From contig CAWKNZ010000005.1 in the NCBI GenBank assembly GCA_963851265.1, positions 192,001 to 256,000 on the forward strand: 64,000 bases of DNA, read 5' to 3'. Below, piece by piece: positions 9,986 through 63,452 of the stretch. The notes beneath the pieces were generated by a model that had not been told where the DNA came from, did not search any database, and saw nothing but the letters and a program-made list of their open reading frames with translations. How positions within the stretch are numbered: position 1 is the first letter of the stretch; each line of letters begins with the position of its first letter. A program made the translations under genes and the position numbers. The stretch is from an uncultured Gemmatimonadales bacterium (GTDB lineage: Bacteria; Gemmatimonadota; Gemmatimonadetes; Gemmatimonadales; Gemmatimonadaceae).

Positions 9986-10031
9986 CGACGCGTTCGCACG
10001 CCTAACGGCGCGCGAAGCCTAACGGCGGGCG

Positions 10032-10070
10032 GCGACGGCCCCCCTGCGACCTCCGCAGGGGGGCCGTCGC
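10032..10070. terminator. Strong hairpin between convergent susD and ppx
   Basis: GCGACGGCCCCCCTGCG-acctc-CGCAGGGGGGCCGTCGC, 17-bp perfect stem; no clear U-tract. Confidence 0.7.
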
Positions 10071-10078
10071 GCGTCGCG

Positions 10079-11674
10079 TCACCCCGCGCCCGGCTCGGCG
10101 CCCGGCGCGACCTCCTCGAACGCGACCGGCTTCCCGAGCAGCTTCGCCAGGAGCCCCGCCTTCCGCTCCGCCCCCCACAGCTCCAGCTGCAGCGAGGCCT
10201 CCGGCACCACCGAGGCGACGCGCATCTGGACCCGTCCGTCCGCCTGGGCCACGGTCACGTCGCCCACCGCGCCGGCGTGCCCGCGGTCCAACCCGTCCGC
10301 GACGCGCAGTAGCGCCGAGAGACGCCTGACGCGGCGCCGCAGCGCGCGGTCCAGCGCGCCGAAGTTGGCGTGCGCGCGCTTCGGCACCGCGCCGCGGTGG
10401 TAGCGCGCCACGTTCGCGATGGCGACTTGTTCCGCGGGCGAGACGCCCTGCAGGTCGGCGTGGCGCACGAGGTGGTACGAGTGCTTGTGGTGCTTCTCGT
10501 AGTTGATCTGGTAGCCGACGTCGTGCAGCAGTGCGGCGTCGGCGAGCACCTCGCGGTCGCCGGGCTCGCAGCCCAGCCGCGCGGCGAGCTGGTCGTAGAG
10601 GCGGAGCGCGAGCCGGCGCACCTGCTCCGCGTGCGGCTGCTCGTAGTGGCAGCGCTCCGCGAACGCGCGCACCGAGCGCTCGCGCGAGACCGCGGGGTCG
10701 GCCGGCGCGCTCGGCGCCACCATCGCGGTCTCGAGCAGGATCCCCTCGCGAATGCCGTAGCCCGAAACCAGCAGCTCGCGCCCTTCGAATACGGCGAGCA
10801 CCTCCGCCGCGACCGCGAGGCCGCCGACGATGATGTCGGCGCGCTCGGGGTTCAGGCCGGCGACCGCGCGCCGCTCGGCCGCGCCGAGCGCGGCGAGCTG
10901 GGCGAGCGTGTGCTCGAGCTCCGCACGCGGCACGACCGTGCCGTGGCGCGACTTGTTCCCGCCGCCCTGCACGCCCGCGCGCGCGTTCACCACGCCCGCG
11001 AGGTTGGTGTACGTCCCGCCCGAGCCGATCACGCGCGCGCCGCGCCACTCCTTCACCGAGAGCTCGTCGCGGATGGCCCAGCGGACCGCGCGCCGCAGCT
11101 CGCGCAGCGCCTGCCGGGCGCGAGACGGCGTTTTCATGTCGTCGGGAGACAAGAACTGGTCGGTCGCGCGGATCGCGCCGAACGGCAGCGAGACGAGCCG
11201 GTCGAGCAATCCCTCCGCCGCGAGGGCCAGCTCCAGCGAGCCGCCGCCGATGTCGGCGACGACCGTGCGCCCGGTGCCGACCTCGAAGTGCGCCATCGCC
11301 GAGCGGAACGACAGGCGCGCCTCCTCGTCGCCCGTGAGCAGGCGGACGCGGAGCCCAGTCGCCTCGTGCACGCGCTCGAGGAATGCCCCGCCGTTGGCGG
11401 CGTCGCGCACGGCGCTCGTCGCCACCGCCTCGATGCGCTCGGCCTTCAGCTGGCCGGCGAGCGCGGCCATGCGCTGCAGGGCGTCGAGCGCGGCGCGCAT
11501 CGGGCCCTCGCCCAACAGGCCCGTCTGGTCCACGCCCGTGCCGAGGCGCGGCATCGCCTTCATCTCGTCGACGACGCGGATTTCGCCGCTGGTCGACACG
11601 TCGGCCACGATGGCGCGGATGGAGTTGGAACCGATGTCGACGGCGGCGATACGCGTGGTGGCGTCGGTGGTCAT
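10079..11674 (-). CDS. ppx: Exopolyphosphatase Ppx/GppA with HD domain
   Basis: AAVDIGSNSIR, VATSAVRDA, GDEEARLS, DIGGGSLEL, GIREG, AALLHDVG..HHKHSYHLV. Confidence 0.95.
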   Translation of the reverse strand: MTTDATTRIAAVDIGSNSIRAIVADVSTSGEIRVVDEMKAMPRLGTGVDQTGLLGEGPMRAALDALQRMAALAGQLKAERIEAVATSAVRDAANGGAFLERVHEATGLRVRLLTGDEEARLSFRSAMAHFEVGTGRTVVADIGGGSLELALAAEGLLDRLVSLPFGAIRATDQFLSPDDMKTPSRARQALRELRRAVRWAIRDELSVKEWRGARVIGSGGTYTNLAGVVNARAGVQGGGNKSRHGTVVPRAELEHTLAQLAALGAAERRAVAGLNPERADIIVGGLAVAAEVLAVFEGRELLVSGYGIREGILLETAMVAPSAPADPAVSRERSVRAFAERCHYEQPHAEQVRRLALRLYDQLAARLGCEPGDREVLADAALLHDVGYQINYEKHHKHSYHLVRHADLQGVSPAEQVAIANVARYHRGAVPKRAHANFGALDRALRRRVRRLSALLRVADGLDRGHAGAVGDVTVAQADGRVQMRVASVVPEASLQLELWGAERKAGLLAKLLGKPVAFEEVAPGAEPGAG

Positions 11675-11710
11675 CTGCGGGCGGAGGGGGGCGAGATCAA
11701 GCGTCCCGAA

Positions 11711-14460: not shown

Positions 14461-14484
14461 GGGCGGCGGCGTGGGGCTGCGACG

Positions 14485-15183
14485 TTAGGCCGGGGCGGGC
14501 GCGTCGGCCGGCGCCGCGTCGCGGCGGTCGGCGAGGCGGCGCTGGATCTTCGCGACGATCATTTCGATCGCGACGGCGTTGTGCCCGCCGCGTGGCACGA
14601 TCACGTCGGCGTGCCGCTTGCTGGGCTCGACGAACTGCTGGTGCATCGGGCGCACGGTCGTCAGATACTGCTCCAGGATCTCCTCGAACGGCCGCCCTCG
14701 CTGTCCCATGTCGCGGCGCAGGCGCCGGATGACGCGCACGTCGGCGTCGGCGTCCACGTAGACCTTCACGTCGCAGAGCTCGCGCACGCGCGCATCCACG
14801 AACAGCAGGATTCCGTCGACGACGACCACGTCGGCCGGCGCGACGGCGACGGTGTACGGTGCGCGCACGTGCTCGGCGAAATCGTACACCGGCTTGTCGA
14901 CCGGCTCGCCGCGCGCCAGACGCTGCAGGTGACCGATAAAGAGGTCGAAGTCGAAGGCGTCGGGGTGGTCCCAGTTGACGCGCCGCCGCTCCGCCGATGG
15001 CAGGTGCGCGAAGTTCTTGTAGTACGCGTCCATGTCGACGAAGGCCACCGATGCGCGGCGCAGCGTCTCCGCGACCTTGCGCGCGACGGTCGACTTGCCC
15101 GAGCCCGACCCGCCGGCGATCCCGATCACGAGCGGCTTCGGTGACGCGCCGTACGACCGATCCGCCCCGCCGGGCGTGCTCAT
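14485..15183 (-). CDS. udk: Uridine kinase
   Basis: IGIAGGSGSGKST, DAYY, NWDHPDAFD, PVYDF, RRLRRD, FVEPSKRHADVIVP. Confidence 0.95.
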   Translation of the reverse strand: MSTPGGADRSYGASPKPLVIGIAGGSGSGKSTVARKVAETLRRASVAFVDMDAYYKNFAHLPSAERRRVNWDHPDAFDFDLFIGHLQRLARGEPVDKPVYDFAEHVRAPYTVAVAPADVVVVDGILLFVDARVRELCDVKVYVDADADVRVIRRLRRDMGQRGRPFEEILEQYLTTVRPMHQQFVEPSKRHADVIVPRGGHNAVAIEMIVAKIQRRLADRRDAAPADAPAPA

Positions 15184-16551: not shown

Positions 16552-17444
16552 TGGGCCTGCCCCCGTCCGGCCTCATGCCGCCCGACGTGTCGGCCGACGT
16601 CGCGGCAGCGGTCCGCTACGGCGCGGCCGCGGCGCGCGCCGCGGCCGCCGCGGTGCGCGACCGCCTCGGCCTCGCGGACGGCGCCGCGCCCGCCTGCGCG
16701 ATCGTGCTCGGCTCGGGGCTCGGCGACCTCGCGGGCGACGTGGCGGACGCGCGACGCGTGCCGTTCGCCGACGTGCCGGGCTTCCCACCGGCGACCGTCG
16801 AGGGACACGCCGGCGCCCTCCTCAGCGGCGCGCTCGGAGGCCGGCCGGTGCTCCTCCTCGCCGGGCGCTTCCACCTGTACGAGGGGCACCCCGCGCCGCT
16901 CGCCGCCTTCGCGGTGCGCGTCGTGCACGCGCTCGGCGCGCGCACGCTCTTCCTCAGCAACGCCGCCGGCGGCGTGCGCCGCACGTTAGGCCCTGGGGAC
17001 CTCATGGTGATCGCCGACCACCTCAACCTGACCGGACGCAACCCGCTCGTCGGGCCGCTCCAGGACGGCGACCTCCGATTCCCCGACATGTCGGAGCCGT
17101 ACGACGGCCGGCTGCGCGCGCGGCTGCGCGACGCCGCGCGCGCCACAGGGGTGCCGGTCGCCGAGGGCGTCTACGCCGGGCTCCTCGGCCCGAGCTTCGA
17201 GACGCCCGCCGAGGTGCGGATGCTCGAGCGGCTCGGCGCCGACGCCGTCGGCATGTCGACCGTGCCCGAGGCGATCGTCGCGCGTGCGTTAGGCATGCGC
17301 GTGGCGGGGGTGAGCCTCGTGACCAACGCGGCGAGCGGGCACACCGGGCAGGCGCTCACGCACGCCGAGGTTCTCGAGGCCGGCCGGGAGGCGTCGGCGC
17401 GGTTCCGGGCGCTGGTGACGGAGTTCGTGCGGCGGTTGGAGTGA
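16551..17444 (+). CDS. punA: Purine nucleoside phosphorylase (PunA/trimeric type)
   Basis: IVLGSGLG, GHAG, GRFHLYEG, NAAGG, RFPDMS, GPSFETPAE, GADAVGMSTVPE; overlaps add stop (TGATG). Confidence 0.92.
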   Translation: MGLPPSGLMPPDVSADVAAAVRYGAAAARAAAAAVRDRLGLADGAAPACAIVLGSGLGDLAGDVADARRVPFADVPGFPPATVEGHAGALLSGALGGRPVLLLAGRFHLYEGHPAPLAAFAVRVVHALGARTLFLSNAAGGVRRTLGPGDLMVIADHLNLTGRNPLVGPLQDGDLRFPDMSEPYDGRLRARLRDAARATGVPVAEGVYAGLLGPSFETPAEVRMLERLGADAVGMSTVPEAIVARALGMRVAGVSLVTNAASGHTGQALTHAEVLEAGREASARFRALVTEFVRRLE

Positions 17445-21717: not shown

Positions 21718-23112
21718 GTGACGCTCCTCGCTCCCGGCCCCTCGTCCGGCCCGCCGTCGGACGGTTCCGCCGACGAGCACCGGTCCGTGCAGCCGGCCTC
21801 GCCGGCCGCGGCGGCCGGTGAAGCCGCGGTCGCACACGACCCGCGCGTCCCCCCGCCGGTCCCCGACGAGGAGCAGAAGCTGCAGGCGCTGCGCAGCATG
21901 CAGCGCCGCGCGACCGGCCTGTTGATCGCCGCCGCCGTGCTCTTCGTCGTCGCGCGCGCGCTCGAGGCAGCCCACCCCTGGGTGGCCTACGTGCGCGCGT
22001 TTGCCGAGGCGGCGATGGTCGGCGGGATCGCCGACTGGTTCGCGGTCACGGCGCTCTTCCGCCATCCGTTAGGCATTCCGATCCCGCACACGGCCATCGT
22101 GCCGGCGCGCAAGGACCGGATCGGCCGCTCGCTCGGCAAGTTCGTGCAGCAGAATTTCCTCTCGCGCGAGGTGGTCGGCGCCAAGCTCGCCGCGGCGCGC
22201 CCGGGAGAGCGCGCCGCGCGCTGGCTCGCCGAGCCCGCGCACGCGCGGCTGCTCGCCCGGCAGGTCGCGGTGGCGCTCTCGGGCGCGGCCGAGGTGTTGC
22301 GGGACGACGACGTGAACGCGTTCGTCGAGCGCTCGCTCGTCTCGCGGCTGCGCAAGGTGCAGGCGGGCCCGCTCGTCGGCCGGGCGCTGTCGCTGCTCAC
22401 GGCCGACGGCCGCCATCAGGAGCTCCTCGACGAGGCGCTCCGCATCACGGCACGCGGCGTCGCGACCAACCAGGACGTCATACGCGCGCGCATCGCCGCG
22501 GAGGCGCCCTGGTGGGTGCCGGGCGCGGTCGAGGACAAGCTCCACCAGAAGATCATCGACGGACTCGAGCGCACGCTGCAGCAGGTGAGCGCCGACCCGC
22601 ACCACCCGCTGCGCGCGCGCTTCGACGACGCGGTGCAGCAGTTCGCCGAGCGCCTGCGCACCTCGCCCGAGACGATCGAGCGGGCGGAGGCGGTGAAGGA
22701 GGAGCTGCTCGCGCACCCGGCCGTGCGCGAGTACGCCGGCGGCCTCTGGGGCGACGTGAAGCGCGCCCTCGCGCGCCAGGCCGAGACGTTAGGCCACGCC
22801 GACGAGGGCGACGCGCCCAACGCGATCGAGCGGGGGCTCACGTCGCTCGCCGGCACCGCGCTCGCGGACCGGGCGCTCGCGGCGAAGCTCGACGGCTGGA
22901 TCGTCGAGGCGGTGCTCGCCGTGATCGAGCAGTACCGCGACGAGGTGAGTCAGCTGATCGAGAGCACGGTCGCGGGCTGGGACCCCGCGGCCACGTCGCA
23001 CCGGATCGAGGTGCAGATCGGGCGGGACCTGCAGTTCATCCGGATCAACGGCACGCTGGTGGGCGGGCTCGTCGGGGTGGCACTCTACGCGATCGGGAGG
23101 ATCGTCGGGTAG
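21718..23112 (+). CDS. DUF445 family membrane protein
   Basis: AEAAMVGGIADWFAVTALFRHPLGIPIPHTAI; C-terminal GRDLQFIRINGTLVGGLVG. Confidence 0.92.
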   Translation: MTLLAPGPSSGPPSDGSADEHRSVQPASPAAAAGEAAVAHDPRVPPPVPDEEQKLQALRSMQRRATGLLIAAAVLFVVARALEAAHPWVAYVRAFAEAAMVGGIADWFAVTALFRHPLGIPIPHTAIVPARKDRIGRSLGKFVQQNFLSREVVGAKLAAARPGERAARWLAEPAHARLLARQVAVALSGAAEVLRDDDVNAFVERSLVSRLRKVQAGPLVGRALSLLTADGRHQELLDEALRITARGVATNQDVIRARIAAEAPWWVPGAVEDKLHQKIIDGLERTLQQVSADPHHPLRARFDDAVQQFAERLRTSPETIERAEAVKEELLAHPAVREYAGGLWGDVKRALARQAETLGHADEGDAPNAIERGLTSLAGTALADRALAAKLDGWIVEAVLAVIEQYRDEVSQLIESTVAGWDPAATSHRIEVQIGRDLQFIRINGTLVGGLVGVALYAIGRIVG

Positions 23113-23156: not shown

Positions 23157-25829
23157 CTAGGCGTCCTCGCTCGCCCTCCGCTCCGTTCCGCCCTCCTCCG
23201 CGTTCCGCGCCCCCGGCGTCCGGTGGTGCTGTCCAACGGCCAGCGTGTCCCCATCGGCGAGCGCCGCGCTTTCGGTCGCGGCCTCCGCGGCGAGGTCTGC
23301 CCGCGGCACCACCGCCGGCAGCAGCGCGATCCGCAGCACCTCGTCCATCGCGGAGACGAACGTGAACGTGGTCCCCTCCCGGACCTCCGTCGGTACGTCG
23401 CGCAGGTCCTTCTCGTTCGCCTTCGGCAGGAGCACCTCGCGCAGCCCGGCGCGGTACGCGGCGAGCACCTTCTCCTTCACGCCGCCGATCTCCAGCACCT
23501 TCCCGCGCAGCGTCACCTCGCCGGTCATCGCGAGGTCGCGCCGCACCGGCCGGCGTGAGAGGACGCTCGCGATCGCCAGCGTGATCGCGATCCCCGCCGA
23601 CGGCCCGTCCTTGGGCACCGCCCCCGCCGGGAAGTGCACGTGGATGTCGTGCTCCTTGAACGCGCGGTCCTCGACTCCCAACGTGGTCGCGCGCGAACGC
23701 ACGTACGAGAGCGCCGCGTCGACGCTCTCGCGCATCACGTCGCCGAGTTGGCCGGTGACCGTGAGCTTGCCCGTGCCCGGCATGCGCAGCGCCTCGATCG
23801 ACATCAGGTCGCCCCCGGTGCTCGTCCAGGCGAGCCCCGTCACGACGCCGACCTCGGCGTCGCGCTCCGCCGCCTCGGCCGCGTAGCGCGGCGGTCCCAG
23901 CACCTCCTCGACCGCGGCATGGTCGAGCACCCACGCCGCCTCGTCCCCCTCGGCCTTGCGCCGCGCGCGCTTGCGCATGAGCGTCGCGAGGTTGCGGCCG
24001 AAGTTGCGAAGCCCCGCCTCGCGCGAGTAGCGGTTGGCGACGAACGAGAGGATCTCGTCGGTGAACACGATGTCGTGCTCGACGAGGCCGTGGTCGTCGA
24101 GCAGCTGCGGGATCGTGTAGCGCCACGCGATCTCGACCTTCTCCTCGACCGTGTAGCCCGCGATGCGGATCACCTCGAGCCGGTCGCGCAGGGGGCCCGG
24201 GATGTCGTACAGGTTGTTGGCCGTGCAGATGAACAGCACCTGCGACAGGTCGAACGGCAGGTTGAGGTAGTGGTCGACGAACGTCGAGTTCTGGTTGGGG
24301 TCGAGCACCTCGAGCATCGCCGCCGTCGGGTCGCCCGCCGGGCCCCCGCCGCTCATCTTGTCGATCTCGTCGATGAGGAACACCGGGTCCTTCACCGCGA
24401 CGCGCCGCATCGCCTGCACCAGCAGCCCCGGCATCGACCCCACGTAGGTACGCCGGTGGCCGCGGATCTCCGCCTCGTCGCGCACGCCGCCCACCGAGAT
24501 GCGGTAGAACTGCCGCCCGATCGCCTTCGCGATCACCTCGCCTAACGACGTCTTTCCCGTGCCCGGCGGGCCCGCGAAGCAGAGGATCGGGCCCGACGAG
24601 CGTCCCCCCTTGAGCTTGCGCACCGCGAGGTACTCGACGATCCGGTCCTTGGCCTCGCTCAGCCCGTAGTGCCGCTCGCCCAACGCGTCCTCGACCTTCC
24701 GCAGGTCGATCTCCGGCGGCTCGTCCGCGGCGTGCCACGGCAGCGCGAGCACCCAGTCGAGGTAGGTGCGCACCACCTGGTACTCGCTCGACGCGGTCGA
24801 GAGCATGCGCAGCCGCTCGACCTCGCGTCGCGCCTCGGCCGCGACGCGCTCGGGGAGGTTCGCGTCCTCGATGCGCTTGAGGATCTCGCTCGATTCCTTC
24901 TCGCCCGGGTCGGTCTCGCCCAACTCGGTCTGGATCGCGCGCAACTGCTGCCGCAGGTAGAACTCGCGGTGGTGCTGCTCGATCTTGATCTCGGTCTGCT
25001 TCTTCACCTGCTCCATCACCTGCGCGCGCCCCACTTCGCGCTCCAGCCGCGAGAGGATGAAGCGCAGCCGGTCGGCGACGTCGAGCTTCTGCAGCACCTC
25101 GTCCTTGTCGGCGATGCGCAGGTTCATGTTGGTCGCGGCGAGGTCGGCGAATCGCCCCGGGTCGCTCACGTTCATCCGGAGGATCGCGGGCACCTCGTCC
25201 GGGATCCGCTCCACGAGCGTCGAGAGCGTCTCGGCCGCCGACACCACACGCGTCACGAGTTCGTCGACCGCCGTACGCGAGGCCTCAGCGCCGATCGCCT
25301 CCGCGCCGGTGGATTCCGCGTCGGTCGAGTCGGCGCCGGTCGCGCCCGCTCCGGTCGCGCCCGCGCCGGTCGCGGCCGCGCCGGTCGCGTCCGCGCCGGT
25401 CCCGTCCGCGCCGGTCCCGTCCGGGTCCTCGTCCGGCGCCAGCAGGTCGTACGCCGGCGACACGCGCGCGATCGGATAGGGCGTCACCTGCTCGACCGCG
25501 TCGATGCGGATGCGGCGCAGCCCCTGCAGCGTGATCTGCACCGTGTCGCCGGGCAGGTTGATGCGTTCGTGCACGCGCGCGGCCACGCCGATCCGACCGA
25601 GGAAGCGCTCGTTGTCGATCGGCTCCTCGTATTCGCCGTGCGCGACGACGAGAGCGACGATCTCGCCCGGCGCGTCGTGCGCGCGCAGTAGTGCGAGGTT
25701 CTCCGGCGCGCCCATCTGCACGGCGATCGTGCCGAGTGGGTAGACGATCGTCGAGCGCAGCGCCATGAGCGGCAGCGTCGGCGGCAGTTCGGAGTGCAGG
25801 ATCTCGTCCTTGCGCTGTGATCGGGCCAT
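23157..25829 (-). CDS. lon: ATP-dependent Lon protease with low-complexity insertion in the N-domain
   Basis: ATG at 25829; Walker [33 protein letters not shown] (catalytic Ser), IGGVKEK (catalytic Lys). Confidence 0.96.
25288..25422 (-). repeat. About 9 degenerate 15-bp tandem repeats inside lon
   Basis: Encodes [45 protein letters not shown]. Confidence 0.85.
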
Positions 25830-26217
25830 GCGACGGGAACGGTGGTGCGGGACGGGGCAGCGTGCGGCTGCCGCAATTTGGCACCGTTCACCGGCCGTGT
25901 GCGACTTGCCCCGCAGCCGCGGCGCGCCCCGCGGCGGAACGTGCGCTGTGGCGTCGCGCGCGCGTTGGGCCGAGACCCGGTAGCACTGCGTCGCCACGTC
26001 GGGCGTTCGGTGTGGCTTGCTCCTCAAACGACGCGTCGGTACACTCGCCGTCTGCGGCAGGTGACCACGGCGATCGGGGTCGCCGGCGTGATCGGCGCCA
26101 TGTGGGCGCTCGCGCCGTTCGTCCGCCGCGTGAGCGCCTGCGTGGCCCGCGCCGGTCCGGGGCGCCAAACCCGCTCCGTTGTAGAAGTGTAAGCGGCACC
26201 ATAGTTTACACCGCCTT

Positions 26218-32670: not shown

Positions 32671-32893
32671 CGCCGGCGCTACGCCTAACGCGTCGGGCGT
32701 TAGTCCTGCTACGTCGCGCGGGCGACCGGGTGACGCGTGCCGCACGGGATGCGGCGGAGTCCGGCGTAGGACCGCCGGCGTGTGATGCGGGTCACCCGCG
32801 GGCGGGTGCGCTGGCCGTAGGTTCGCGTTGTCGGTCTACGAAGTCCGGGGCATCAGAGTCCCGCGTGCGACACTCACACCGTCGAGGATTCCT

Positions 32894-35880: not shown

Positions 35881-37607
<1,727 letters not shown>

Positions 37608-42061: not shown

Positions 42062-44533
<2,472 letters not shown>

Positions 44534-51294: not shown

Positions 51295-53052
51295 ATGGCC
51301 ACGGCGCCACTCACCGTCGCCTATTTCTCGATGGAGGTCTGCCTCGAGCAGGCGCTCCCCACCTACAGCGGCGGGCTCGGCGTGCTCGCCGGCGATACGC
51401 TGCGTTCCGCGGCCGACCTGGCCTTGCCCATGGTCGCCGTCACGCTCGCGCACCGGTGTGGCTACTTCACGCAACACCTCGGCCCCGACGGCCGGCAGAG
51501 CGAGACGTCGGCCGAGTGGGACCCGTCGGAGCGGCTGGCGCGGGTACCGCATTCGGTCACCGTCGAGATCGAGGGCCGGCCGGTGGTGGTCAACGCGTGG
51601 CGCTACGACGTGCGCGGCGTGGGCGGCCACGTCGTGCCGGTGTACCTGCTCGACACGCGCGACGATGCGAACGCCGCGTACGACCGCACGCTCACCGACA
51701 CGCTCTACGGCGGCGACCTGCGCTACCGCCTGTGCCAGGAGGTCGTCCTCGGTGAGGGCGGCGCGGCGCTGCTCGACGCGTTAGGCGTGGGCGCCGACGC
51801 GGGCACCCAGTACCACATCAACGAGGGGCACGCGGCGCTCCTCACGCTGCACCTGCTGGAGCGCCAGCTCAACGGGCGCGGCGCGGCGGAGGCCTCGGTG
51901 GCCGACGTCGAGGCGGTCGCGCGGCGCACCATCTTCACGACGCACACGCCGGTGCCCGCGGGCCACGACAAGTTCCCGGGCGACCTCGCGCGCGGCGTGC
52001 TCGGCGCCAAGGCGAAGCTGATGGACGCGCTCTCGCTGTGGGACCACGGGCAGCTGAACATGACGCGCCTGGCGCTGCGCTGCTCGCGCTACGTCAACGG
52101 CGTGGCGATGCGGCACCAGCAGGTCTCGCAGGAGATGTTCCCGGAGTACCGCATCGAGTCGGTGACCAACGGCGTGCACGCGACCACGTGGGCGGCCGAG
52201 CCGTTCCGGCAGCTGTTCGACAAGCACATCCCCGAGTGGCGGCAGGACAACCTGTACCTGCGGTACGCCGTCGCGCTCCCGACCGAGGAGCTGCGCGAGG
52301 CGCACCGCGCCGCGAAGCAGGCCATGCTCGACGAGGTTCAGCGCCGCACGGGGCAGTCGCTCGATCCGAAGGCCTTCACCATCGGGTTCGCGCGCCGCTC
52401 GGCGACGTACAAGCGCGCGGACCTCGTGTTCTCGGACCTCGACCGGCTGCGGCGGATCGCGCGCGAGACCGGGCCGCTGCAGTTCGTGTTCGCCGGCAAG
52501 GCGCACCCGCGCGACGAGTACGGCAAGGCGCTCATCCGCAACGTGTACGAGGCCGCGCGGCAGCTGGGCGACGCGCTGCGCGTGGTCTACGTCGAGAACT
52601 ACGAGATGACGTTAGGCCACCTGCTCACGTCGGGCGTGGACCTGTGGCTCAACAACCCGCTCCGCCCGCTCGAGGCGAGCGGCACGAGCGGGATGAAGGC
52701 CGCGCTCAACGGCGTGCCGTCGCTGTCCGTGCTCGACGGCTGGTGGGTGGAAGGGTGCGTGGAGGGCGCGACGGGCTGGGCCATCGGCCGCGACGACAAG
52801 GCGCTCGCGGACCCGACCACGGACGTCACGACCGCCTACGCGCGCTCCGACGCCGCGTCGCTCTACGACAAGCTCGAGCAGACCATCGTCCCGCTCTACT
52901 ACGGCATGCCCTATAAGTGGGCCGACGTGATGCGGTCGGCGATCGCGGTGAACGGGTCGTATTTCAACACGCAGCGCATGGTGTGGCAGTACCTGCACAA
53001 CGCCTACCTGCCGGGCGCGGAGCTGGCCGCGCTGCAGCCCGCGACCGCGTGA
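51295..53052 (+). CDS. glgP: Alpha-glucan phosphorylase (short form)
   Basis: ATG at 51295; AYFSME, YSGGLGVLAGD, NEGH, FTTHTPVPAGHD, GFARR.ATYKR, EASGTSGMKA (PLP Lys). Confidence 0.94.
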   Translation: MATAPLTVAYFSMEVCLEQALPTYSGGLGVLAGDTLRSAADLALPMVAVTLAHRCGYFTQHLGPDGRQSETSAEWDPSERLARVPHSVTVEIEGRPVVVNAWRYDVRGVGGHVVPVYLLDTRDDANAAYDRTLTDTLYGGDLRYRLCQEVVLGEGGAALLDALGVGADAGTQYHINEGHAALLTLHLLERQLNGRGAAEASVADVEAVARRTIFTTHTPVPAGHDKFPGDLARGVLGAKAKLMDALSLWDHGQLNMTRLALRCSRYVNGVAMRHQQVSQEMFPEYRIESVTNGVHATTWAAEPFRQLFDKHIPEWRQDNLYLRYAVALPTEELREAHRAAKQAMLDEVQRRTGQSLDPKAFTIGFARRSATYKRADLVFSDLDRLRRIARETGPLQFVFAGKAHPRDEYGKALIRNVYEAARQLGDALRVVYVENYEMTLGHLLTSGVDLWLNNPLRPLEASGTSGMKAALNGVPSLSVLDGWWVEGCVEGATGWAIGRDDKALADPTTDVTTAYARSDAASLYDKLEQTIVPLYYGMPYKWADVMRSAIAVNGSYFNTQRMVWQYLHNAYLPGAELAALQPATA

Positions 53053-55083: not shown

Positions 55084-56013
55084 GTGCGGAGGCGTTGGGT
55101 CGGAACGGTCGCGGCGGGCATCGCGTTAGGCACGACGTTCGCCACGTCGTCGCGCGCGGCCCGCGGCCAGCCGGGGGTGGCTGCTCTCGCGGCGCCGCGG
55201 CCGGCCCCGGTGGCCGCTCCGCGTTCGTCGCGGCCGCGCGGGGTCGCGCTCCGGCTGCGCCCCCGCGTGGGCGACACGGTGCGGACGCGATTCGAGCAGA
55301 CGGTCCGCCTGATGCCGCGCGGCACGGCCGGCTCGGCCGACGTGGTCCCGGCGAGCGCCATGCTCGTGATCGCGCGCTCGATCGTCGAGCGCGTCGACGA
55401 CGCCGGCGCATTTCTGCTGGCGGTCACGGACTCGGTCGCGTTTCGCGCCCCCGGCGCGCCGGCGGCCGCGGTCGAGCGCATGCGGCGCGGGATGCAGGGG
55501 CGCCGCGCCGAGATGCACGTCGCGCCGGACGGCGCACTCGCGGCGAGCGACGGCGTGGCGGGCGGACTGCCCGCGGGGCTGGCAGGCGGGGCCGTCGGCG
55601 TGGTCGCCTCGCTCCGCCTGCCCGGCACGCTCCCGGCGACGGTCGTCGCGCCCGGCGCGCGCTGGCGGCGCGCGATGGCCGTGCCGGCCTGGGGCCCCGC
55701 CGCGGCCCCGCCGCACCTCGACGTCGCCTTCCGGTTCGACTCGATGACCGCCGACGAGTCGCGCGCCTACATCTCACTTCGCGGCCGCGTGCACGGCGCC
55801 GCGACGCCCGAGTCGGACGACGACCTGCTTCCGGGCACGATGGGCGCCGCCGAGCCCGGGCGCGTCGAGGGCGCGCTCGTCGTCGACCTCGCGCGCGGCT
55901 GGGTGGTCGAGTCGTGGGCGACGTTCCGGCTCAACGCCGTCCTGGTGAGCGCGCCCGGCGCGGCGCCCGCGCCGGTGTGGGTGGTCGTCACGCAGCGTCT
56001 CAGGGCCTACTGA
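55084..56013 (+). CDS. Hypothetical exported protein
   Basis: Basic plus hydrophobic N-terminus, GC3-rich codons, beta-rich body; no family recognised. Confidence 0.7.
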   Translation: MRRRWVGTVAAGIALGTTFATSSRAARGQPGVAALAAPRPAPVAAPRSSRPRGVALRLRPRVGDTVRTRFEQTVRLMPRGTAGSADVVPASAMLVIARSIVERVDDAGAFLLAVTDSVAFRAPGAPAAAVERMRRGMQGRRAEMHVAPDGALAASDGVAGGLPAGLAGGAVGVVASLRLPGTLPATVVAPGARWRRAMAVPAWGPAAAPPHLDVAFRFDSMTADESRAYISLRGRVHGAATPESDDDLLPGTMGAAEPGRVEGALVVDLARGWVVESWATFRLNAVLVSAPGAAPAPVWVVVTQRLRAY

Positions 56014-56054: not shown

Positions 56055-57224
56055 TCACGCCCGCACCTCGCGCGAGTGCGCCAGGTCGTCCTCGAACATC
56101 GCCGCCATGCGCGCGCCGAGGTCGGCGTCGTCGATCACGGCGTCGAGCTCGAAGTTGATCGCCACGCCTAACGGATTGAAGTCGGTCGACCCGATCCGCG
56201 CGTAGCGCGCGTCCGACACGGTGGTCTTGGCGTGCATCATCTCGCCCTGCCACTCCCAGATGCGCACGCCGTCGCGCAGGAGCCGCGGGTAGTAGCGGCG
56301 CGTGATGGGCAGCACCCACCCGTGGTCGCCGCGCCCCGGGGTGAGCAGCCGCACGTCCACCCCGTCGCGCGCGGCGCCCGTGAGCGCCTCGATCAGCGAC
56401 GGCGACGGCGTGAAGTACGCGTCCGCGATCCAGATCGTGTGCTCGGCTTCGACGGCCACCGTCTCGAGTGCGCGCGTGATCCGGTAGCGCCCCGGCTCGC
56501 CCTGGACGATGCCGATCACGCCGACGGTGTCCCGCTCGGCCGGCGCCCCCGGCGCGTCGCCCGGCGCGACGGTCGGCCGCGACGCCTCGGGGTGCTGCCG
56601 CTTGTACCGCGGCGTGAGCGCCCACATCCGATCGAACGCCTCGGCCATCACCGCCGCGGCCGGCCCGTCGATCTGCACGGCCGTATCGCGCCACGGCCCG
56701 CTACCGGGGCGCCCCGGGTGCTCGCCCACCGCCCACTCGTGCCCGAGGCCCACGCCGCCGGTCACGCCCGACCGCCCATCGACCACGAGCAGCTTGCGGT
56801 GGTCACGCGGCACCACCCCGAACCAGGTCGTGCCCAGTCGGGGCGGGTTGAAGTCGTGCACCTCGACGCCCCCCTCGCGCAACTTGCGGACGAACGTCTT
56901 CGAAATCCCGCGCGAACCTGCCCAATCGTAGAGCACCCGCACCCGCACGCCGCGGCCGGCCGCCTCCATCAGCGCGGGGGCGAACCGCGAGCCGACCGCG
57001 TCGCTGCGGACGATGTAGCTCTCGAGCATCACCTGTTCGCGCGCGCCCGCGATCAGGTCGAGCATCGCGTCGAACGTCGCCGGGCCGTTGCGGAGCAGGG
57101 TCGACACGTTGCCGCCCGAGACGTGCGCGGAGGCGATGCGCCACATGCGGTGGGCGAAGGTGTTCGCGCCGCCCGACGCCGGAGAGGTGCCGGGTCCGTC
57201 GGTCATTCCAGGTGCTTCGGTCAT
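56055..57224 (-). CDS. cls: Cardiolipin synthase-like phospholipase D (ClsB type, no N-terminal TM)
   Basis: Two HKD motifs: DHRKLLVVD and MHAKTTVSD; WRDT, YFTP. Confidence 0.88.
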   Translation of the reverse strand: MTEAPGMTDGPGTSPASGGANTFAHRMWRIASAHVSGGNVSTLLRNGPATFDAMLDLIAGAREQVMLESYIVRSDAVGSRFAPALMEAAGRGVRVRVLYDWAGSRGISKTFVRKLREGGVEVHDFNPPRLGTTWFGVVPRDHRKLLVVDGRSGVTGGVGLGHEWAVGEHPGRPGSGPWRDTAVQIDGPAAAVMAEAFDRMWALTPRYKRQHPEASRPTVAPGDAPGAPAERDTVGVIGIVQGEPGRYRITRALETVAVEAEHTIWIADAYFTPSPSLIEALTGAARDGVDVRLLTPGRGDHGWVLPITRRYYPRLLRDGVRIWEWQGEMMHAKTTVSDARYARIGSTDFNPLGVAINFELDAVIDDADLGARMAAMFEDDLAHSREVRA

Positions 57225-58413: not shown

Positions 58414-59700
58414 GTGCGCCTCGTCCACCTCGCCGACCTTCACCTCGGCTTCCGCCAGTACCAGCGCCTCACCCCGACCGGCGTCAACCAGCGGGAGGCG
58501 GACGTCGCGCGCACCTTCGCCCGCGCGATCGACCGCACCATCGAGCTGGCGCCGGACCTCGTGGTGGTCGCCGGCGACGTGTTTCACGTCGTGCGGCCGC
58601 CCAACCCCGCGATCCTGCACGCGTTCCGGCAGTTCATGCGCCTGCAGCTCGCGCTGCCTAACGCGACGGTCGTGATGGTCGCGGGCAACCACGACGCGCC
58701 GCGCACGGCCGAGACGGGCTCCATCCTGAAGCTGTTCACCGAGTGCGGCGTGCGCGTGGTGGATGGCGCGGCCGAGCGGATCGCGCTCCCCGCACTCGAC
58801 GCGAGCGTGCTCGCCGTGCCCGACGTGCCGGGGCACGTGCGCCCGGTGCTCGCGCCCGACCCGTCGGCGCGCCACAACGTGCTGCTGCTCCACGGCGAGG
58901 TCGAGGGCATGCTGCGCGGCGTCGCCTCCGCGGAGCGAGCCGCGACCGAGATCCCGCGCGCCGACCTGCGCGCCCCGGAGTGGGATTACATCGCGCTCGG
59001 CCACTATCACGTCTACCGCGAGGTCGAGCCGAACGCGTACTACTCGGGGTCGATCGACTACACGAGCTTCGACGCGTGGGGCGAGCGGCGCGACGAGCGC
59101 GACCAGGGCATCCCGGGCAAGGGGATCGTCGAGCGCGACCTCGCGACGGGGCGGCACACCTTCCACCCGCTCGAGCCCTCGCGCACGCTCGTCGACCTGC
59201 ACCCGGTCGCGGGTGCGGGGCTCGGCGCGCGCGAACTCGATGCGGCGGTCCGCGCGGCGGTCGACGGGGTGGCGGGCGGCATCGAAGACAAGATCGTGCG
59301 GCTCCGCGCGGTCGACGTGCCGCGCCACATCGCGCGGGAGATGGACCACAAGGCCCTGCGCGAGTACAAGCGGCGCGCGTTGCACTTCCAGTTCGAGACC
59401 GTGCGCCCCGACGTCGCGCGCGTCGCGGCCGGCGGCTCGCCCGGGCGCCGCCCGTCGCTCGCCGACGTGGTGCGCGAGAAGCTCGCCGCGCGGCTGCTGC
59501 CGGGCGAGGTTCCGCGCGACGCCTTCGTCGCGTTAGGCCTCAAGTACCTGGCCGACGCCGACGCGGCGGCCGCCGAGGCCCCCGCGGGCGCGATGGCCGG
59601 CGCGGGCGACGGCGACGGCGCGTTCGCGGCCGCCGCGTCCGTGGGCGGCACCCCCGTGGGCGGCACGCCCGCGGGCGGAACCGCCGGGGGCGTCGCGTGA
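58414..59700 (+). CDS. sbcD: SbcD/Mre11 family nuclease
   Basis: HLADLHLG, AGDVF, AGNHD, LHG, YIALGHYH, YSGS. Confidence 0.92.
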   Translation: MRLVHLADLHLGFRQYQRLTPTGVNQREADVARTFARAIDRTIELAPDLVVVAGDVFHVVRPPNPAILHAFRQFMRLQLALPNATVVMVAGNHDAPRTAETGSILKLFTECGVRVVDGAAERIALPALDASVLAVPDVPGHVRPVLAPDPSARHNVLLLHGEVEGMLRGVASAERAATEIPRADLRAPEWDYIALGHYHVYREVEPNAYYSGSIDYTSFDAWGERRDERDQGIPGKGIVERDLATGRHTFHPLEPSRTLVDLHPVAGAGLGARELDAAVRAAVDGVAGGIEDKIVRLRAVDVPRHIAREMDHKALREYKRRALHFQFETVRPDVARVAAGGSPGRRPSLADVVREKLAARLLPGEVPRDAFVALGLKYLADADAAAAEAPAGAMAGAGDGDGAFAAAASVGGTPVGGTPAGGTAGGVA

Positions 59701-62162
59701 AGCTGCGCGCGCTGCGCCTCGTCAACTTCCGGCAGCACGCGGACTCGTCGCTCACGTTCGGCGACGGGCTCACGGGGATCATCGGGCCCAACGGGTCGGG
59801 CAAGACCACCGTGCTCGAGGCGATCGCGTGGGCGCTCTACGGCCAGCAGGCCGCGCGCGGCACCCGCGACTCGCTGCGCTTCACCCGCGCGCCGGCGCGC
59901 GCGTCCGTGCGGGTCGAGCTGGAGTTCGAGCTCGCCGGGCACCGCTACCGCGTCGTGCGCGGCCTGACCAGCGCGGAGGTCTACCTCGACAACGCCCCGT
60001 CGCCGGTCGCCAACTCGATCACCGGCGTCACCGAGCTCCTGCAACGCCGGCTCGGGATGACGAAGGGTGAGTTCTTCAACACGTACTTCACGGGACAGAA
60101 GGAGCTCTCGGTGATGGCCGCGATGGGGCCCACCGAGCGCGCGCAGTTCCTGTCCCGCGTGTTGGGCTACGAACGGCTGCGCGCCGCGCAGCACCTCGTG
60201 CGCGAGCGCCGGAAACTCGTGGTCGCCGAGCTCCAGGGGCTGCGTTCCGGGCTCCCCGACCCCGACGCGGTGCGCGCGGCGCTCCGCGAGGCCGAGGCGC
60301 GCGTGGCGTCCGCCCGCGCGGGGGCCGAGGCGGCGGAGCGCGACCGCGTGCGGGCACAGGAGCGCCTCGCCACCGTGGTGCCGCGCTGGCAGGCGGTGCA
60401 GGAGGCGCGCGAGCGCGCGCTCGCCCTCGCCGGCGAGCTGCGGGTGGCCGAGGGCGAGGCGGCCACGCTCGGGCGCGAGGTCGAGCGGATCGCGCGCGAA
60501 CTCGACGCCGCCACCGCGGCCGGGGTGGAAGTCGAGCGCCTGGCGTCGATGCTCGCGCCGCTCCCGATCCTGCGGACCGAGCTCGCACGCCTCGACCAGC
60601 TCGCGGCGGCGGAGGGGCGGCGTCAGGCGCTGCTCGACTCCGAGCGCGCGCTCGCCGACGAGGCCGCGAAGCTGGCCGAGCGGCGCGCGAAGCTGGGCGC
60701 CGCGCCCGCGCTGGAGCGCGAGACCGAGGCGCAACTCGCCTCCCGCCGGCAGGAGCTGGACGCGGTGCAGGGCGAGCACGAGGCGCAGCGCACGGCGTAC
60801 GTGCGCGACCGGCAGGAGGCCGACACGAAGCTCGAATCGCTGCGCGCGCAGTTCGCCGACGCCAAGGCGCAGCGCGACCGCGTGCAGCAACTCGGCCCCG
60901 AGAGCCCGTGCCCTACGTGCACGCGTCCGTTGGGCGCGAGCTTCACGACCGTCCTCGACGCGCTCGACGACCAGCTCGACACGCTGAGCGCGAACGGGCA
61001 GTACTTCAAGAACCGCCTCAAGCAGCTCGAGGGCGAGCCCGAGGCGCTGCGCGCGTTAGGCGAGCGCCGCCGCGCGCTCGCGGCCGACGTGACCGCGCTG
61101 GAGCGCCGCTTCGCCAAGTGCCAGGCCGGCGTGCAGGAGCTGCGGCTGGTGGAGCAGGACGCCGCCGCGCGCGAGCGTCGGCTGGCGGGCGTGCGCGCCG
61201 ACCTCGCCGCGCTCCCCGCCGGGTACGACCACGCCGCGCACCGCGCGACGAAGGCCGAGACCGAGCGCCTCGTCCAGCTCGACCGCGAGCGCGTGCGCGC
61301 CGAGGCGACCGTCGCGCGCGCGGCCGAGGCGCGCGCCGCGCTGGAGCGCGCGACCGCCGCGCTCGCACAGACCCGCGAGCGCGTCGACGCGCTGCGCGCG
61401 CGCGCGGCCGCGACGTCGTTCGACGAGGGCGCGTTCGCGCGCGGGCGGAGCGAATACGACGAGGCCACGGCCGCGGCGCGCGGCGCCGAGGTCCGTGCGG
61501 CGCAGTCCGAGGGCGAGCTCGCCGCCGCGCGCGGCGCGCTCGAGAGCGCGGAGCGGCAGCGCGCCGAGTTGGAGCGCGGCCGCGAGCGGCTGCAGGCGCT
61601 GTCGCACGAGCGCCTGCTGCACGAGGAGCTCGACCGCGCGTACACCGACCTGCGCACCGACCTCAATTTCCAGCTGCGCCCCGAACTCTCGGACGCGGCC
61701 AGTCGCTTCCTGGAGGACCTCACCGACGGTCGTTACGACGCACTCGAGCTCGACGACCAGTACAACGTGATCGTGCTCGAGGGGAAGGTGCCCAAGCCCG
61801 TGATCTCGGGTGGCGAGGAGGACCTCGCGAATCTCGTACTGCGCCTCGCGATCTCGCAGATGATCGCGGAGCGCGCGGGACAGAGCTTCTCGCTGCTCGT
61901 GCTCGACGAGGTATTCGGGTCGCTCGACGAGTCGCGCCGGGCCAACGTGATCGAGCTGCTGCGGCGCCTGCACGACCGCTTCGAGCAGGTGATCGTGATC
62001 ACGCACATCGAGGACGTGCGCGAGGGGCTCGACCAGGTGATCCGCGTGCGCTACGACGAGGCGCGCGGTACCTCGGTAGTCGAGCAGGACGGGCGCGGTG
62101 AGGGCGACGACGTCGATTCCGCGCCGCCCGACGCCCGTCCGGCACTCGTCGCCGCGGCCTGA
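59697..62162 (+). CDS. sbcC: SbcC/Rad50 family SMC-like ATPase
   Basis: GTG at 59697 overlapping the sbcD stop; GPNGSGKT, coiled coil, CPTC zinc hook, ISGGE signature, LVLDEVFGSLD, VITH. Confidence 0.93.
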   Translation: MKLRALRLVNFRQHADSSLTFGDGLTGIIGPNGSGKTTVLEAIAWALYGQQAARGTRDSLRFTRAPARASVRVELEFELAGHRYRVVRGLTSAEVYLDNAPSPVANSITGVTELLQRRLGMTKGEFFNTYFTGQKELSVMAAMGPTERAQFLSRVLGYERLRAAQHLVRERRKLVVAELQGLRSGLPDPDAVRAALREAEARVASARAGAEAAERDRVRAQERLATVVPRWQAVQEARERALALAGELRVAEGEAATLGREVERIARELDAATAAGVEVERLASMLAPLPILRTELARLDQLAAAEGRRQALLDSERALADEAAKLAERRAKLGAAPALERETEAQLASRRQELDAVQGEHEAQRTAYVRDRQEADTKLESLRAQFADAKAQRDRVQQLGPESPCPTCTRPLGASFTTVLDALDDQLDTLSANGQYFKNRLKQLEGEPEALRALGERRRALAADVTALERRFAKCQAGVQELRLVEQDAAARERRLAGVRADLAALPAGYDHAAHRATKAETERLVQLDRERVRAEATVARAAEARAALERATAALAQTRERVDALRARAAATSFDEGAFARGRSEYDEATAAARGAEVRAAQSEGELAAARGALESAERQRAELERGRERLQALSHERLLHEELDRAYTDLRTDLNFQLRPELSDAASRFLEDLTDGRYDALELDDQYNVIVLEGKVPKPVISGGEEDLANLVLRLAISQMIAERAGQSFSLLVLDEVFGSLDESRRANVIELLRRLHDRFEQVIVITHIEDVREGLDQVIRVRYDEARGTSVVEQDGRGEGDDVDSAPPDARPALVAAA

Positions 62163-62189
62163 CCGCGTGACACCTCCGGTGCCGAGCCG

Positions 62190-63170
62190 ATGACCGGGCT
62201 GCGCCCGTGGCGCGCGTCGTCGCGCACCGCCGACGGCCCGTACCGCGCCACGGCGGCCGACATTCCGTCGCTGAACACCGCGTTCAGCGAGGCGTTCACG
62301 GACCGTTACCGCAAGGACGGTCTCGTGGGCGTGCGGGTGCCCGCGCTCAACCCGCTCATCTGGCGCTACGCGCTCGCCGACGCGGGCGAGGGCGCGGTCC
62401 TCTGGCGCGGCGACCGCGCCGAGGTGGTCGCGTTCAACGTCGCGCACCACTCGGGCGAGGAGGGGTGGATGGGGCCGCTCGCGGTCGCGCCGACGCACCA
62501 GGGGCGCGGGCTCGGCAAGGCGGTCGTCGGCGCGGGGGTCGAGTGGCTACGGTCGTGCGGCGCGCGCACGATCGGGCTCGAGACGATGCCGCGCACGATG
62601 GACAACATCGGCTTCTACTCGTCGCTGGGCTTCGTTCCCGGCCGCCTCACGCTCACGCTCACGCTCGACGCGGCCGCCGCGGCGCGCGCTCCCACGCTGC
62701 TGGGGCGGCTGCCGCAGGGCGCGCGCGAGGCTGCCGCGGCGGAGTGCGCGGCGCTCACGGCCGCGGTCGGGCCGGGGCGCGACTTCACGCGCGAGATGGC
62801 GCTCACCGAGGAGTTCGCGGTCGGCGACACGGTGCTCGCGTACGGGCCCGGGGGCGCGCTCGCGGGGTTCGCGCTCTGCCATTCTGCGCCCCTCGTCGAG
62901 GGGCGGGTGCGCGAGGAGGTGCGCGTGCTGAAACTCGTCATCGCCTCGCCGGACGCGCTGAGCGCGCTGGCCGAGGCGGTGTGCGACTTCGCGCGGCGGA
63001 GCGGCGCGCGGCGGGCGGCGTTCCGCGTGCAGGGCGAGTACACGTGGCTGTACCAGGCGCTCCTCGCGCGGGGGGCGCGGGTGCGGTGGAGTGATTTGCG
63101 GATGACGTTAGACGGGTATCCGGAGCCGGCGGTGGCGGAAGGGGCGGTGCTGTCGAACTGGGAGATTTAG
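62190..63170 (+). CDS. GNAT family N-acetyltransferase
   Basis: GPLAVAPTHQGRGLGKAVV acetyl-CoA motif, NIGFYSSLGF. Confidence 0.85.
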   Translation: MTGLRPWRASSRTADGPYRATAADIPSLNTAFSEAFTDRYRKDGLVGVRVPALNPLIWRYALADAGEGAVLWRGDRAEVVAFNVAHHSGEEGWMGPLAVAPTHQGRGLGKAVVGAGVEWLRSCGARTIGLETMPRTMDNIGFYSSLGFVPGRLTLTLTLDAAAAARAPTLLGRLPQGAREAAAAECAALTAAVGPGRDFTREMALTEEFAVGDTVLAYGPGGALAGFALCHSAPLVEGRVREEVRVLKLVIASPDALSALAEAVCDFARRSGARRAAFRVQGEYTWLYQALLARGARVRWSDLRMTLDGYPEPAVAEGAVLSNWEI

Positions 63171-63244
63171 GGGCGGTGGAAGGGTGGGGCGCGCGGCTGT
63201 CACGCGTGCCCGTGACGGGTCGGGGATCGGCGCTTCTTGAACGC

Positions 63245-63408
63245 CAGGCTGGCGATGAACGAGCCGGGAATAATACGGCCGGGGAGACGACGGCTCGGGA
63301 GGTACGACCGGGGGTTACGGACGGCCTGGCCGTCGCCCTTGCGAGCGTCATCGCCTCCGCTGTCGTATCCCCGGGCCGTCCCTCCTCGGCCCTACTCCCA
63401 CGCGCCTG
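63245..63408. ncRNA. Candidate structured ncRNA (long imperfect rod, 6S-like geometry)
   Basis: 63275-63294 pairs with 63359-63379, GGAGG/CCTCC inside, apical GACGGC/GCCGTC, outer CAGGC/GCCTG; no credible ORF. Confidence 0.35.
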
Positions 63409-63452
63409 ACCGACCGCCGCCGCCGTTAGGCAGCATCCGTCCCCCTCCGACC

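Follow-up and report, generated by a model that had tools for sequence, protein, structure and literature searches.

The DNA analysed here, hereafter the window, is a 64-kb stretch (contig CAWKNZ010000005.1) from an uncultured Gemmatimonadales soil bacterium of the family Gemmatimonadaceae, whose assembly (G000; 4.60 Mb in 12 contigs, 73% G+C) carries it at G000:C5:192001-256000. An earlier annotation, made from the letters of the window alone and referred to below as the original prediction, had drawn attention to a non-palindromic octamer, CGTTAGGC, scattered through its genes. We found that CGTTAGGC is a word of duplex DNA with a strict core (GTTAGGC) and a preferred 5' C, and that its copies, numerous throughout the genome, interfere with one another at short range. 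This interference between neighbours is the main new result. As to its cause, we lean, tentatively and with rather less than even confidence, towards a tag similar to the uptake signal sequences (USS) and DNA uptake sequences (DUS) of other bacteria, which would be kept up by a one-copy-per-fragment drive and read by a putative sequence-specific protein.

Over-representation of the octamer

The 26 exact copies in the window, read on the forward strand as CGTTAGGC 19 times and as GCCTAACG seven times, stand exactly where the original prediction had put them (Table 1), and none of 100 dinucleotide-preserving shuffles of the window reached this number (mean 1.23, maximum 5). The genome as a whole contains 1,396 copies (708 on the + strand and 688 on the - strand) against a zero-order expectation of ~145. 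This amounts to about one copy per 3.3 kb, with an even density across all contigs (0.27-0.41 per kb). The excess persists under a codon-aware null model, which the original prediction had proposed as a check: called genes hold 880 copies, compared with 39.4 +/- 6.6 (maximum 57) in 30 synonymous-codon shuffles, and these shuffles are conservative, because the rare codons contributed by the word itself stay in them. An order-3 Markov model gives a ratio of ~25 (z ~40). The ranking of 8-mers by a maximal-order Markov model does not flag CGTTAGGC, since its own 7-mers are equally enriched.

As many as 1,396 of the 2,470 TTAG tetramers in the genome fall within the word. The 15 bases on either side of it show codon periodicity only (at most 0.2 bit per position), and the sole one-letter neighbour that is raised in number is TGTTAGGC, with 243 copies. 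No conserved sequence extends past the core and most copies are intragenic, so the copies do not have the properties of dispersed repeats such as repetitive extragenic palindromes (REP) or miniature inverted-repeat transposable elements (MITE). A description of CGTTAGGC as a genomic signature did not turn up in the portion of the literature that our searches reached, in agreement with the original prediction, which knew of none.

Reading frames and base specificity

Genes were called in G000 with a crude model (long open reading frames with high G+C content at third codon positions, GC3). The copies within called genes comprise 597 in the sense frame xCG-TTA-GGC, 200 read from the opposite strand as G-CCT-AAC-G, 50 read as CTA-ACG and 33 as GTT-AGG. 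Another 516 lie beyond called genes, in 23% of the genome and at twice the density found within genes, although this 'intergenic' class contains some missed genes because the model covers just 77% of the genome.

The codon TTA makes up 597 of the 2,203 leucine codons in xCG-Leu-GGC contexts (27%) and only 219 of the 74,108 other leucine codons (0.3%), so that it is rare outside the word, as had been proposed; 597 of the 1,094 TTA codons in called genes lie within CGTTAGGC. In the antisense frame, CCT accounts for 200 of the 640 proline codons in G-Pro-AAC-G contexts (31%). Occupancy is thus alike whichever strand is transcribed, which argues against a signal at the RNA or protein level. Together with the doubled density beyond called genes, this bears out the view that the constraint acts on DNA rather than on protein. 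Specificity is sharp. At synonymous contexts that differ from the word in base 1, occupancy falls from 27% for C to 11% for T, 6% for A and 2% for G, and any change in bases 2, 7 or 8 reduces it to at most 3% in the TTA-based profile. Convertible sites are poor in CTG (5% versus 33%).

Within the window, the original prediction had counted 18 copies as NCG-TTA-GGC. Fourteen of them are clear, whereas the other four (16984, 17287, 32219 and 61054) share the codon phase but lie where the gene strand is ambiguous. The copies that it had placed in other reading frames, between genes or at a stop codon were all found as described. Its two additional TTA codons are indeed one-mismatch variants of the word, AGTTAGGC (codon at 34558) and CGTTAGAC (63108), but they are not the only ones, as two TTA codons unrelated to the word occur at 26190 and 28634; under the crude gene model, 9 of the 13 TTA codons in the window lie within CGTTAGGC. 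At 10000-10066 of the window, a direct pair of copies 17 bp apart follows a stop codon and precedes an inverted repeat, GGCCCCCCTGCG...CGCAGGGGGGCC, that resembles a terminator stem.

Interference between copies

Copies of CGTTAGGC avoid each other. Gaps of at most 200 bp between copies number 31 in G000, against 83 expected. When the 2,843 convertible sites of the genome were binned by the distance to the nearest other copy, occupancy was 6.5% at 0-100 bp, 3.3% at 100-200 bp, 21% at 200-400 bp, 30-34% at 400-3,200 bp and 10% beyond 6.4 kb. A neighbour at up to 400 bp is present for 78 occupied sites, compared with 170 +/- 14 when occupancy was permuted among convertible sites. The effect is seen in both relative orientations and across frame types: next to a sense-type copy only 1 of 35 antisense-type sites is occupied, and in the converse arrangement 1 of 43. 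Being independent of frame and orientation, interference is not an effect of rare codons on translation.

The same phenomenon was found in a member of another genus, G012 (62.7% G+C, 260-kb sample), where the word is denser (1.12 per kb; occupancy 27/38 and 16/21) and the range of interference is at most 100 bp, with one gap of up to 50 bp against 15.7 expected and seven of up to 100 bp against 30.6. Events that are independent at each site cannot yield such a distribution. It can result from a force whose returns diminish with each further copy in a stretch of DNA; the stronger such a force, the shorter its expected range, as is seen. The force would act on DNA stretches rather than single sites, since one copy per few hundred bases would suffice.

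Conservation and turnover

Two congeners of G000, G004 and G001, are syntenic with C5 at ~80-84% identity. In three-way aligned DNA, 106 positions carry CGTTAGGC in at least one of these genomes. Twenty-two are occupied in all three; 11 are shared by G000 and G004, four by G000 and G001, and 12 by G004 and G001; 11, 25 and 21 are private to G000, G004 and G001, respectively. Sense-frame copies of G000 are identical in both congeners in 18 of 24 cases (75%; 22 of 48 over all frames), compared with 6,295 of 30,244 phase-matched control 8-mers (21%) and 7 of 32 CGCTCGGC sites. The word is therefore held in place despite containing the rarest codon. Gains and losses are still frequent among the three genomes, and new copies come from point changes at synonymous sites, not from insertion. 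The depletion of CTG prompted us to consider a path by transitions only (CTG>TTG>TTA). This idea had to be given up: many of the copies gained in single lineages derive from CGCTCGGC, and two changes including a transversion separate it from CGTTAGGC.

Strand polarity

Neither GC skew nor strand-corrected GC3 skew gave a usable replichore signal in G000, so that replichores can be defined only roughly. Between 0.8 and 1.83 Mb of C2, where gene orientation switches clearly, occupancy is 31.8% on the presumed leading strand versus 21.4% on the lagging strand (1.5-fold). To the right of dnaA on C1 the trend is reversed (19/94 versus 23/77), and elsewhere in G000 no strand trend in occupancy was found. 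Strand counts are also balanced and interleaved in the G012 sample (154 and 139) and on contig C1 of G154 (27 on the + strand and 23 on the - strand). The latter shows that apparent one-strand runs in genus g55 (17/17, 19/19 and 10/10) are an artefact of listing order. Consistent replichore polarity is absent: a skew that reaches at most 1.5-fold in part of C2 and points the other way on C1 is not that of FtsK-orienting polar sequences (KOPS) or architecture-imparting sequences.

Distribution in the family

We first defined word-rich genomes within a set of 41 relatives as those having at least 150 copies; G016 and G019 are borderline, since they fall below their own backwards-read control. 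All five genomes of the genus of G000, itself included, are rich (727-2,415 copies), as are ten further genomes (173-6,360), while the other 26 have at most 65 copies, mostly far fewer than the control. In a survey of 201 genomes from 68 genera of the family, ~63 genomes in ~24 genera reach at least twice the control by our reading of the counts, with a maximum of 7,821 copies (G193). These tallies include the unpublished genomes G011, G051 and G097, all non-rich (9, 13 and 138 copies), on which none of our specific conclusions depends. About a third of the family keeps CGTTAGGC. Its intensity is graded and mostly uniform within a genus; genus g56 is mixed, with 66 copies in G118 and 3,244-4,141 in four congeners. 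In the word-poor G024 (G024:C4:300001-500000; L171-L180), a different 8-mer, GCTTTGGG / CCAAAGCC, is modestly over-represented (15 copies versus ~1 by the order-3 model).

Within G000, the large word-poor stretches (deserts) hold ordinary genes, and we rejected the idea that they are mobile elements. Two of them share the presence of a ParA-type ATPase (AAA_31/CbiA) together with a PAS-GGDEF-EAL protein (Table 1), which may be a coincidence. Word density did not correlate with inter-species identity across 38 windows.

Relation to integron attC sites

Integron attC sites are imperfect hairpins of 60-120 bp with paired R and L boxes, located beside cassettes and the IntI gene; their consensus is R'' RYYYAAC ... 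R' GTTRRRY. The original prediction had missed that CGTTAGGC spells the core of such sites. G000 itself has ~5 attC-looking inverted pairs (GCCTAAC...GTTAGGC, 89-121 bp apart; Table 1), one of which adjoins an IntI remnant and a BrnT cassette. Fewer than 1% of the copies in the genome belong to such pairs, and more than 99% are lone 8-mers within ordinary genes. The first 12 kb of C6 (G000:C6:1-12000, L183) represent an integron remnant, in which intI on the - strand is split by an insertion carrying a large serine recombinase. The last 30 kb of C10, with 27 copies that are mostly attC ends, resemble the cassette array belonging to it (see L184, G000:C10:186001-206000).

In word-poor relatives most copies occur in one-strand runs with a spacing of 500-650 bp beside IntI, i.e. 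in cassette arrays. When IMG/VR was scanned for paired copies, the matches listed (80 of at least 120 loci) were mainly cassette arrays of 48-67% G+C rather than phages. In these arrays, again among the matches listed, attC has CGTTAGGC as its R' end and GCCTAAC plus a following C as R''. Over 12 array contigs, the preferred 5' C of the genomic word is present on the R' side in 79% of cases, so that the genome-wide word matches the R' end over 8 of 8 bases. Five contigs filed as viral (L100, L053, L041, L076 and L074; 48-64% G+C) are arrays of 9-12 cassettes (250-1,300 bp long), every one of which terminates in an attC of the form GCCTAAC...CGTTAGGC. A tandem array on another viral contig of 30% G+C (L089:5561-6503) has a period of 108 bp, with every unit ending in CGTTAGGC and one inverted copy at the array end; it is unrelated to attC structure.

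Among the rich genomes, the integrase is split in G000, a fragment with a stop codon in G001, and frameshifted in G012, the richest of the 41-genome set. G008, G016 and G018 have no IntI match over the family cut-off, only short Xer-like matches. Copies that stand alone in the genome are no attC sites, nor does the distribution of IntI follow that of the trait.

Candidate readers and DNA uptake genes

Candidate readers were profiled over the 41 genomes (15 word-rich, 26 word-poor). The integron integrase exceeded its cut-off in 8/15 rich and 17/26 poor genomes. Vsr was found in 0/15 and 4/26, C5 methylase in 1/15 (G018, a partial 54-bit match) and 3/26, RecC in 1/15 (G017) and 0/26, AddAB-type PD-(D/E)XK nuclease matches in 5/15 and 12/26, N6_N4 methylase in 8/15 and 12/26, and N6 methylase in 10/15 and 14/26. 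The rich genomes G001, G004, G008 and G012 gave no AddAB-type match, and in G001 (97% complete, 2,137 copies) none of the C5, N6 and N6_N4 methylase families was matched. None of the profiled candidates tracks the trait. In G000 the N6 family is present just as fragmented remnants; its PF02384 matches, split across frames, probably represent restriction-modification genes in decay. One member of the AddAB-like pair of G000 contains a TGA (Table 1).

ComEC and ComEA-type proteins are each present in 40 of the 41 genomes, the word-poor G021 being without both. The uptake route is found in rich and poor genomes alike and so does not explain which of them have CGTTAGGC. An additional ComEA-like paralog of G000 (a small HHH_3 protein, G000:C3:101258) was considered as a receptor candidate and rejected, as it occurs in all searched members of genus g1 and not in other rich genera.

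Table 1. Copies of CGTTAGGC in the window (window positions) and other loci of G000
Feature	Location	Strand	Context	G004 and G001
Copy	10000..10007	-	intergenic, no open frame, 15 bp past stop codon; first of direct pair	
Copy	10017..10024	-	intergenic, no open frame; second of direct pair, directly before G+C-rich hairpin	
Copy	14483..14490	+	gene end, GCC-TAA stop on - strand; no open frame through copy	
Copy	16984..16991	+	wobble phase 2/5/8; gene strand ambiguous	
Copy	17287..17294	+	wobble phase 2/5/8; gene strand ambiguous	
Copy	22067..22074	+	in gene, xCG-TTA-GGC	
Copy	22787..22794	+	in gene, xCG-TTA-GGC	
Copy	24540..24547	-	- strand gene, xCG-TTA-GGC	
Copy	26930..26937	+	coding DNA, wobble phase 2/5/8; two frame readings differ (sense versus antisense)	
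Copy	32219..32226	+	wobble phase 2/5/8; gene strand ambiguous	
Copy	32683..32690	-	intergenic, no open frame	
Copy	36050..36057	+	in gene, xCG-TTA-GGC	retained in both
Copy	40086..40093	+	in gene, xCG-TTA-GGC	retained in G004; G001 has CGCTGGGC
Copy	42540..42547	-	+ strand gene reads G-CCT-AAC-G	both have CGTTGGGC
Copy	43931..43938	+	in gene, xCG-TTA-GGC	retained in both
Copy	45354..45361	+	in gene, xCG-TTA-GGC	retained in both
Copy	45849..45856	+	in gene, xCG-TTA-GGC	retained in G004; G001 has CGCTCGGC
Copy	47563..47570	+	- strand gene reads xGC-CTA-ACG	
Copy	51779..51786	+	in gene, xCG-TTA-GGC	retained in G001; G004 has CGCTCGGC
Copy	52610..52617	+	in gene, xCG-TTA-GGC	G000 only
Copy	55124..55131	+	in gene, xCG-TTA-GGC	G000 only
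Copy	56166..56173	-	- strand gene, xCG-TTA-GGC	retained in G001
Copy	58656..58663	-	+ strand gene reads G-CCT-AAC-G	G001 has TGTTAGGC
Copy	59531..59538	+	in gene, xCG-TTA-GGC	retained in both
Copy	61054..61061	+	wobble phase 2/5/8; gene strand ambiguous	retained in G004
Copy	63424..63431	+	intergenic, no open frame	
attC-like site	C6:1591			
attC-like sites	C10:188935, 194557, 202949, 203673			
BrnT-toxin cassette with attC	C6 ~1273-1700			
intI, profile positions 2-265	C6:5244-6044	-	split gene	
intI, profile positions 260-313	C6:3005-3166	-	split gene	
ParA-type ATPase and PAS-GGDEF-EAL protein	C8, L224:11588-16039		desert	
ParA-type ATPase and PAS-GGDEF-EAL protein	C1, L185:13627-14643 with L187:534-3452		desert	
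ComEC	C2:1510102-1510974			
comEA	C7:759936-760115		adjoins pilB and pilC	
N6 DNA methylase (PF02384) match	C7:771474-772495		broken over several frames	
N6 DNA methylase (PF02384) match	C9:923-1858		broken over several frames	
AddAB-like pair	C3:244523-248949		TGA within one member	

Possible explanations

As described by Bakkali (2007; PMC1939737), the USS of Pasteurellaceae and the DUS of Neisseriaceae lack orientation bias, are evenly spaced and occur in excess in non-coding DNA; one sequence is bound per fragment, and they accumulate by mutation plus uptake bias. As far as that description goes, CGTTAGGC resembles them in being short, non-palindromic, present in hundreds to thousands of copies, strand-equal, denser beyond genes, evenly spaced, placed in tolerated frames by point mutation, conserved with turnover and shared by related genera, and it is because of this match that we rank a USS/DUS-like tag first. 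The type IV pilus/ComEA/ComEC route would prefer fragments carrying CGTTAGGC, imported fragments would replace resident alleles, and word-creating point mutations would spread by molecular drive, with or without selection for the uptake of own-kind DNA. The word would then accumulate wherever coding permits and be held there. On this account the cells would be competent, their uptake would favour the word, and a putative protein would read it. There are differences as well. The USS core measures 9 bp and its flanks are AT-rich; DUS measure 10-12 bp, are often found in inverted-pair terminators and are read by the minor pilin ComP in Neisseria. CGTTAGGC, by contrast, has neither informative flanks nor inverted-pair terminators, and keeps one attC-identical spelling across at least 24 genera.

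Several observations weigh against an uptake tag. Uptake genes do not co-vary with the trait and are present in word-poor genomes too; G118, word-poor within a word-rich genus, retains ComEC, ComEA and a secretin. A receptor for CGTTAGGC was not found among the uptake proteins profiled, and natural competence of the phylum Gemmatimonadota did not turn up in the part of the literature covered by our searches. The two poor relatives sampled, G006 and G024 (200 kb each), gave no sign of dialects: neither has a comparable hyper-abundant 8-mer, their best order-3 z-scores being 8-14 versus 40-48 in rich samples. Uptake alone does not explain the 8/8 identity with the R' end of attC. The largest desert, G000:C1:182875-227962, spans 45 kb of normal G+C content with 0 of 33 convertible sites occupied (P ~2e-5) and holds pgm, mnmG/gidA, parA, parB, mnmE, ada, the gene for a PAS-GGDEF-EAL protein and other ordinary genes. 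Its orthologues carry four copies in 22 kb in G004 and three in 27 kb in G001, 3-4 times below the genome averages, and are more diverged (74-79% identity). A word-poor parAB-gidA zone of this kind is not predicted by a simple uptake drive. Depletion in accessory DNA was sought on C5 and dismissed, the density being practically no lower in DNA unaligned to the congeners (0.38 per kb) than in DNA aligned to both (0.40). Finally, the IMG/VR contig L069, a genuine tailed phage (terminase, portal, holin, CI-like regulator), carries the word at host-like density; its 19 copies in 15 kb occur in both orientations and show no attC structure.

The phage copies and the parAB zone would be better explained by a mobile reader that acts on the chromosome inside the cell. 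The reader might be a nucleoid-associated protein, or a nuclease or defence system for which the word is a protective 'self' mark, or the word might be a recombination or repair landmark. Here the word would be kept by selection for coverage, with a site every few hundred bases, phages would copy it as self, and the poor zone around parA, parB and gidA in three species would be sensible if the bound reader clashes with the partition complex. Interference and conservation fit any coverage function, while a patchy, graded trait, mixed within g56 and showing no dialects, is what a mobile gene with fixed specificity might produce. We nevertheless rank this explanation second and regard it as doubtful: the distribution of the trait is matched by none of RecC, the AddAB-type nucleases, Vsr and the methylases (C5, N6/N4), known nucleoid-occlusion and partition systems use far fewer than thousands of sites, and an interference range of 200-400 bp, which shrinks with density, is large for simple steric exclusion. 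Nor can the desert be tied to ParB, because no parS-like site (consensus with at most two mismatches) was found anywhere in G000. A direct role of integrons, in which the integrase or a relative recognising the same R box acts on or selects genomic copies of the core site, seems distinctly unlikely. The word does equal the R' end letter for letter, including the preceding C; G000 has attC-like sites of its own, and attC sites ending in CGTTAGGC stand beside IntI in word-poor relatives and on five environmental contigs. However, attC sites are paired-box hairpins near IntI whereas the bulk of the copies are lone 8-mers that arose by synonymous point changes, IntI is no mark of rich genomes, and the word is conserved between G000 and G001 despite IntI being broken in both. 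We see somewhat better prospects, if still poor ones, for a mobile 8-bp-specific reader that uses the attC core as a duplex mark. It could be an uptake receptor that harvests gene cassettes from soil DNA, with the genome filling up by drive, or an intracellular 'self' mark imitated by cassettes and phages.

The two remaining explanations are largely excluded. A context-specific bias of mutation or repair acting site by site, either like very short patch (VSP) repair or according to a methylation-linked model as for HIP1, would suit the similar occupancy in the two frames, the single raised neighbour TGTTAGGC and the depletion of CTG. HIP1 (GCGATCGC) of cyanobacteria is a palindromic 8-bp word, hyper-abundant at synonymous sites and linked to methyltransferases. 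CGTTAGGC shares its length and its hyper-abundance at synonymous sites in genes, but is no palindrome, and no methylase family tracks it. Strong interference independent of frame is impossible with independent per-site events, many gains require two changes including a transversion, Vsr is found in no rich genome, the only C5 match in a rich genome is partial, and G001 lacks matches to all three methylase families. The word is also AT-richer than its alternatives, presumably the opposite direction to VSP repair. We therefore hold such a bias to be very improbable. Least credible of all is a polar signal that serves either recombinational repair, as does the crossover hotspot instigator (Chi), read by RecBCD/AddAB, or the translocation of chromosomes, as do KOPS, read by FtsK. 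An 8-mer over-represented in core genes about once per 3.3 kb, together with the leading-strand preference on C2, would be in keeping with it. Yet Chi and KOPS are co-oriented with replication, whereas the C2 trend is reversed on C1 and missing elsewhere, the G012 and G154 samples are balanced, RecC was found in a single genome of the 41, and AddAB-type matches occur in 12 of 26 poor versus 5 of 15 rich genomes. Of the four mechanisms offered in the original prediction, the uptake-sequence-like one survives, while Chi, KOPS and the HIP-like or methyl-directed option find no support.

Implications

To our knowledge, sequence-tagged DNA uptake is known from just two proteobacterial families. If CGTTAGGC is an uptake tag, it would be a third case and a major extension, in an abundant soil phylum without described competence, with at least 70% of convertible sites filled in some genera and with a tag spelled exactly like the integron recombination core. 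Gene flow in soil communities would then become directly accessible to study, and phages and cassettes would have a ready-made marker of the host. Should a reader of the attC core be involved, a single word would link natural DNA exchange in soil Gemmatimonadaceae with integrons and phages. If the reader is not an uptake receptor, CGTTAGGC would mark a new kind of chromosome-wide signal. Contrasts within genera, such as that between G118 and its congeners, make the reader findable by comparative genomics.

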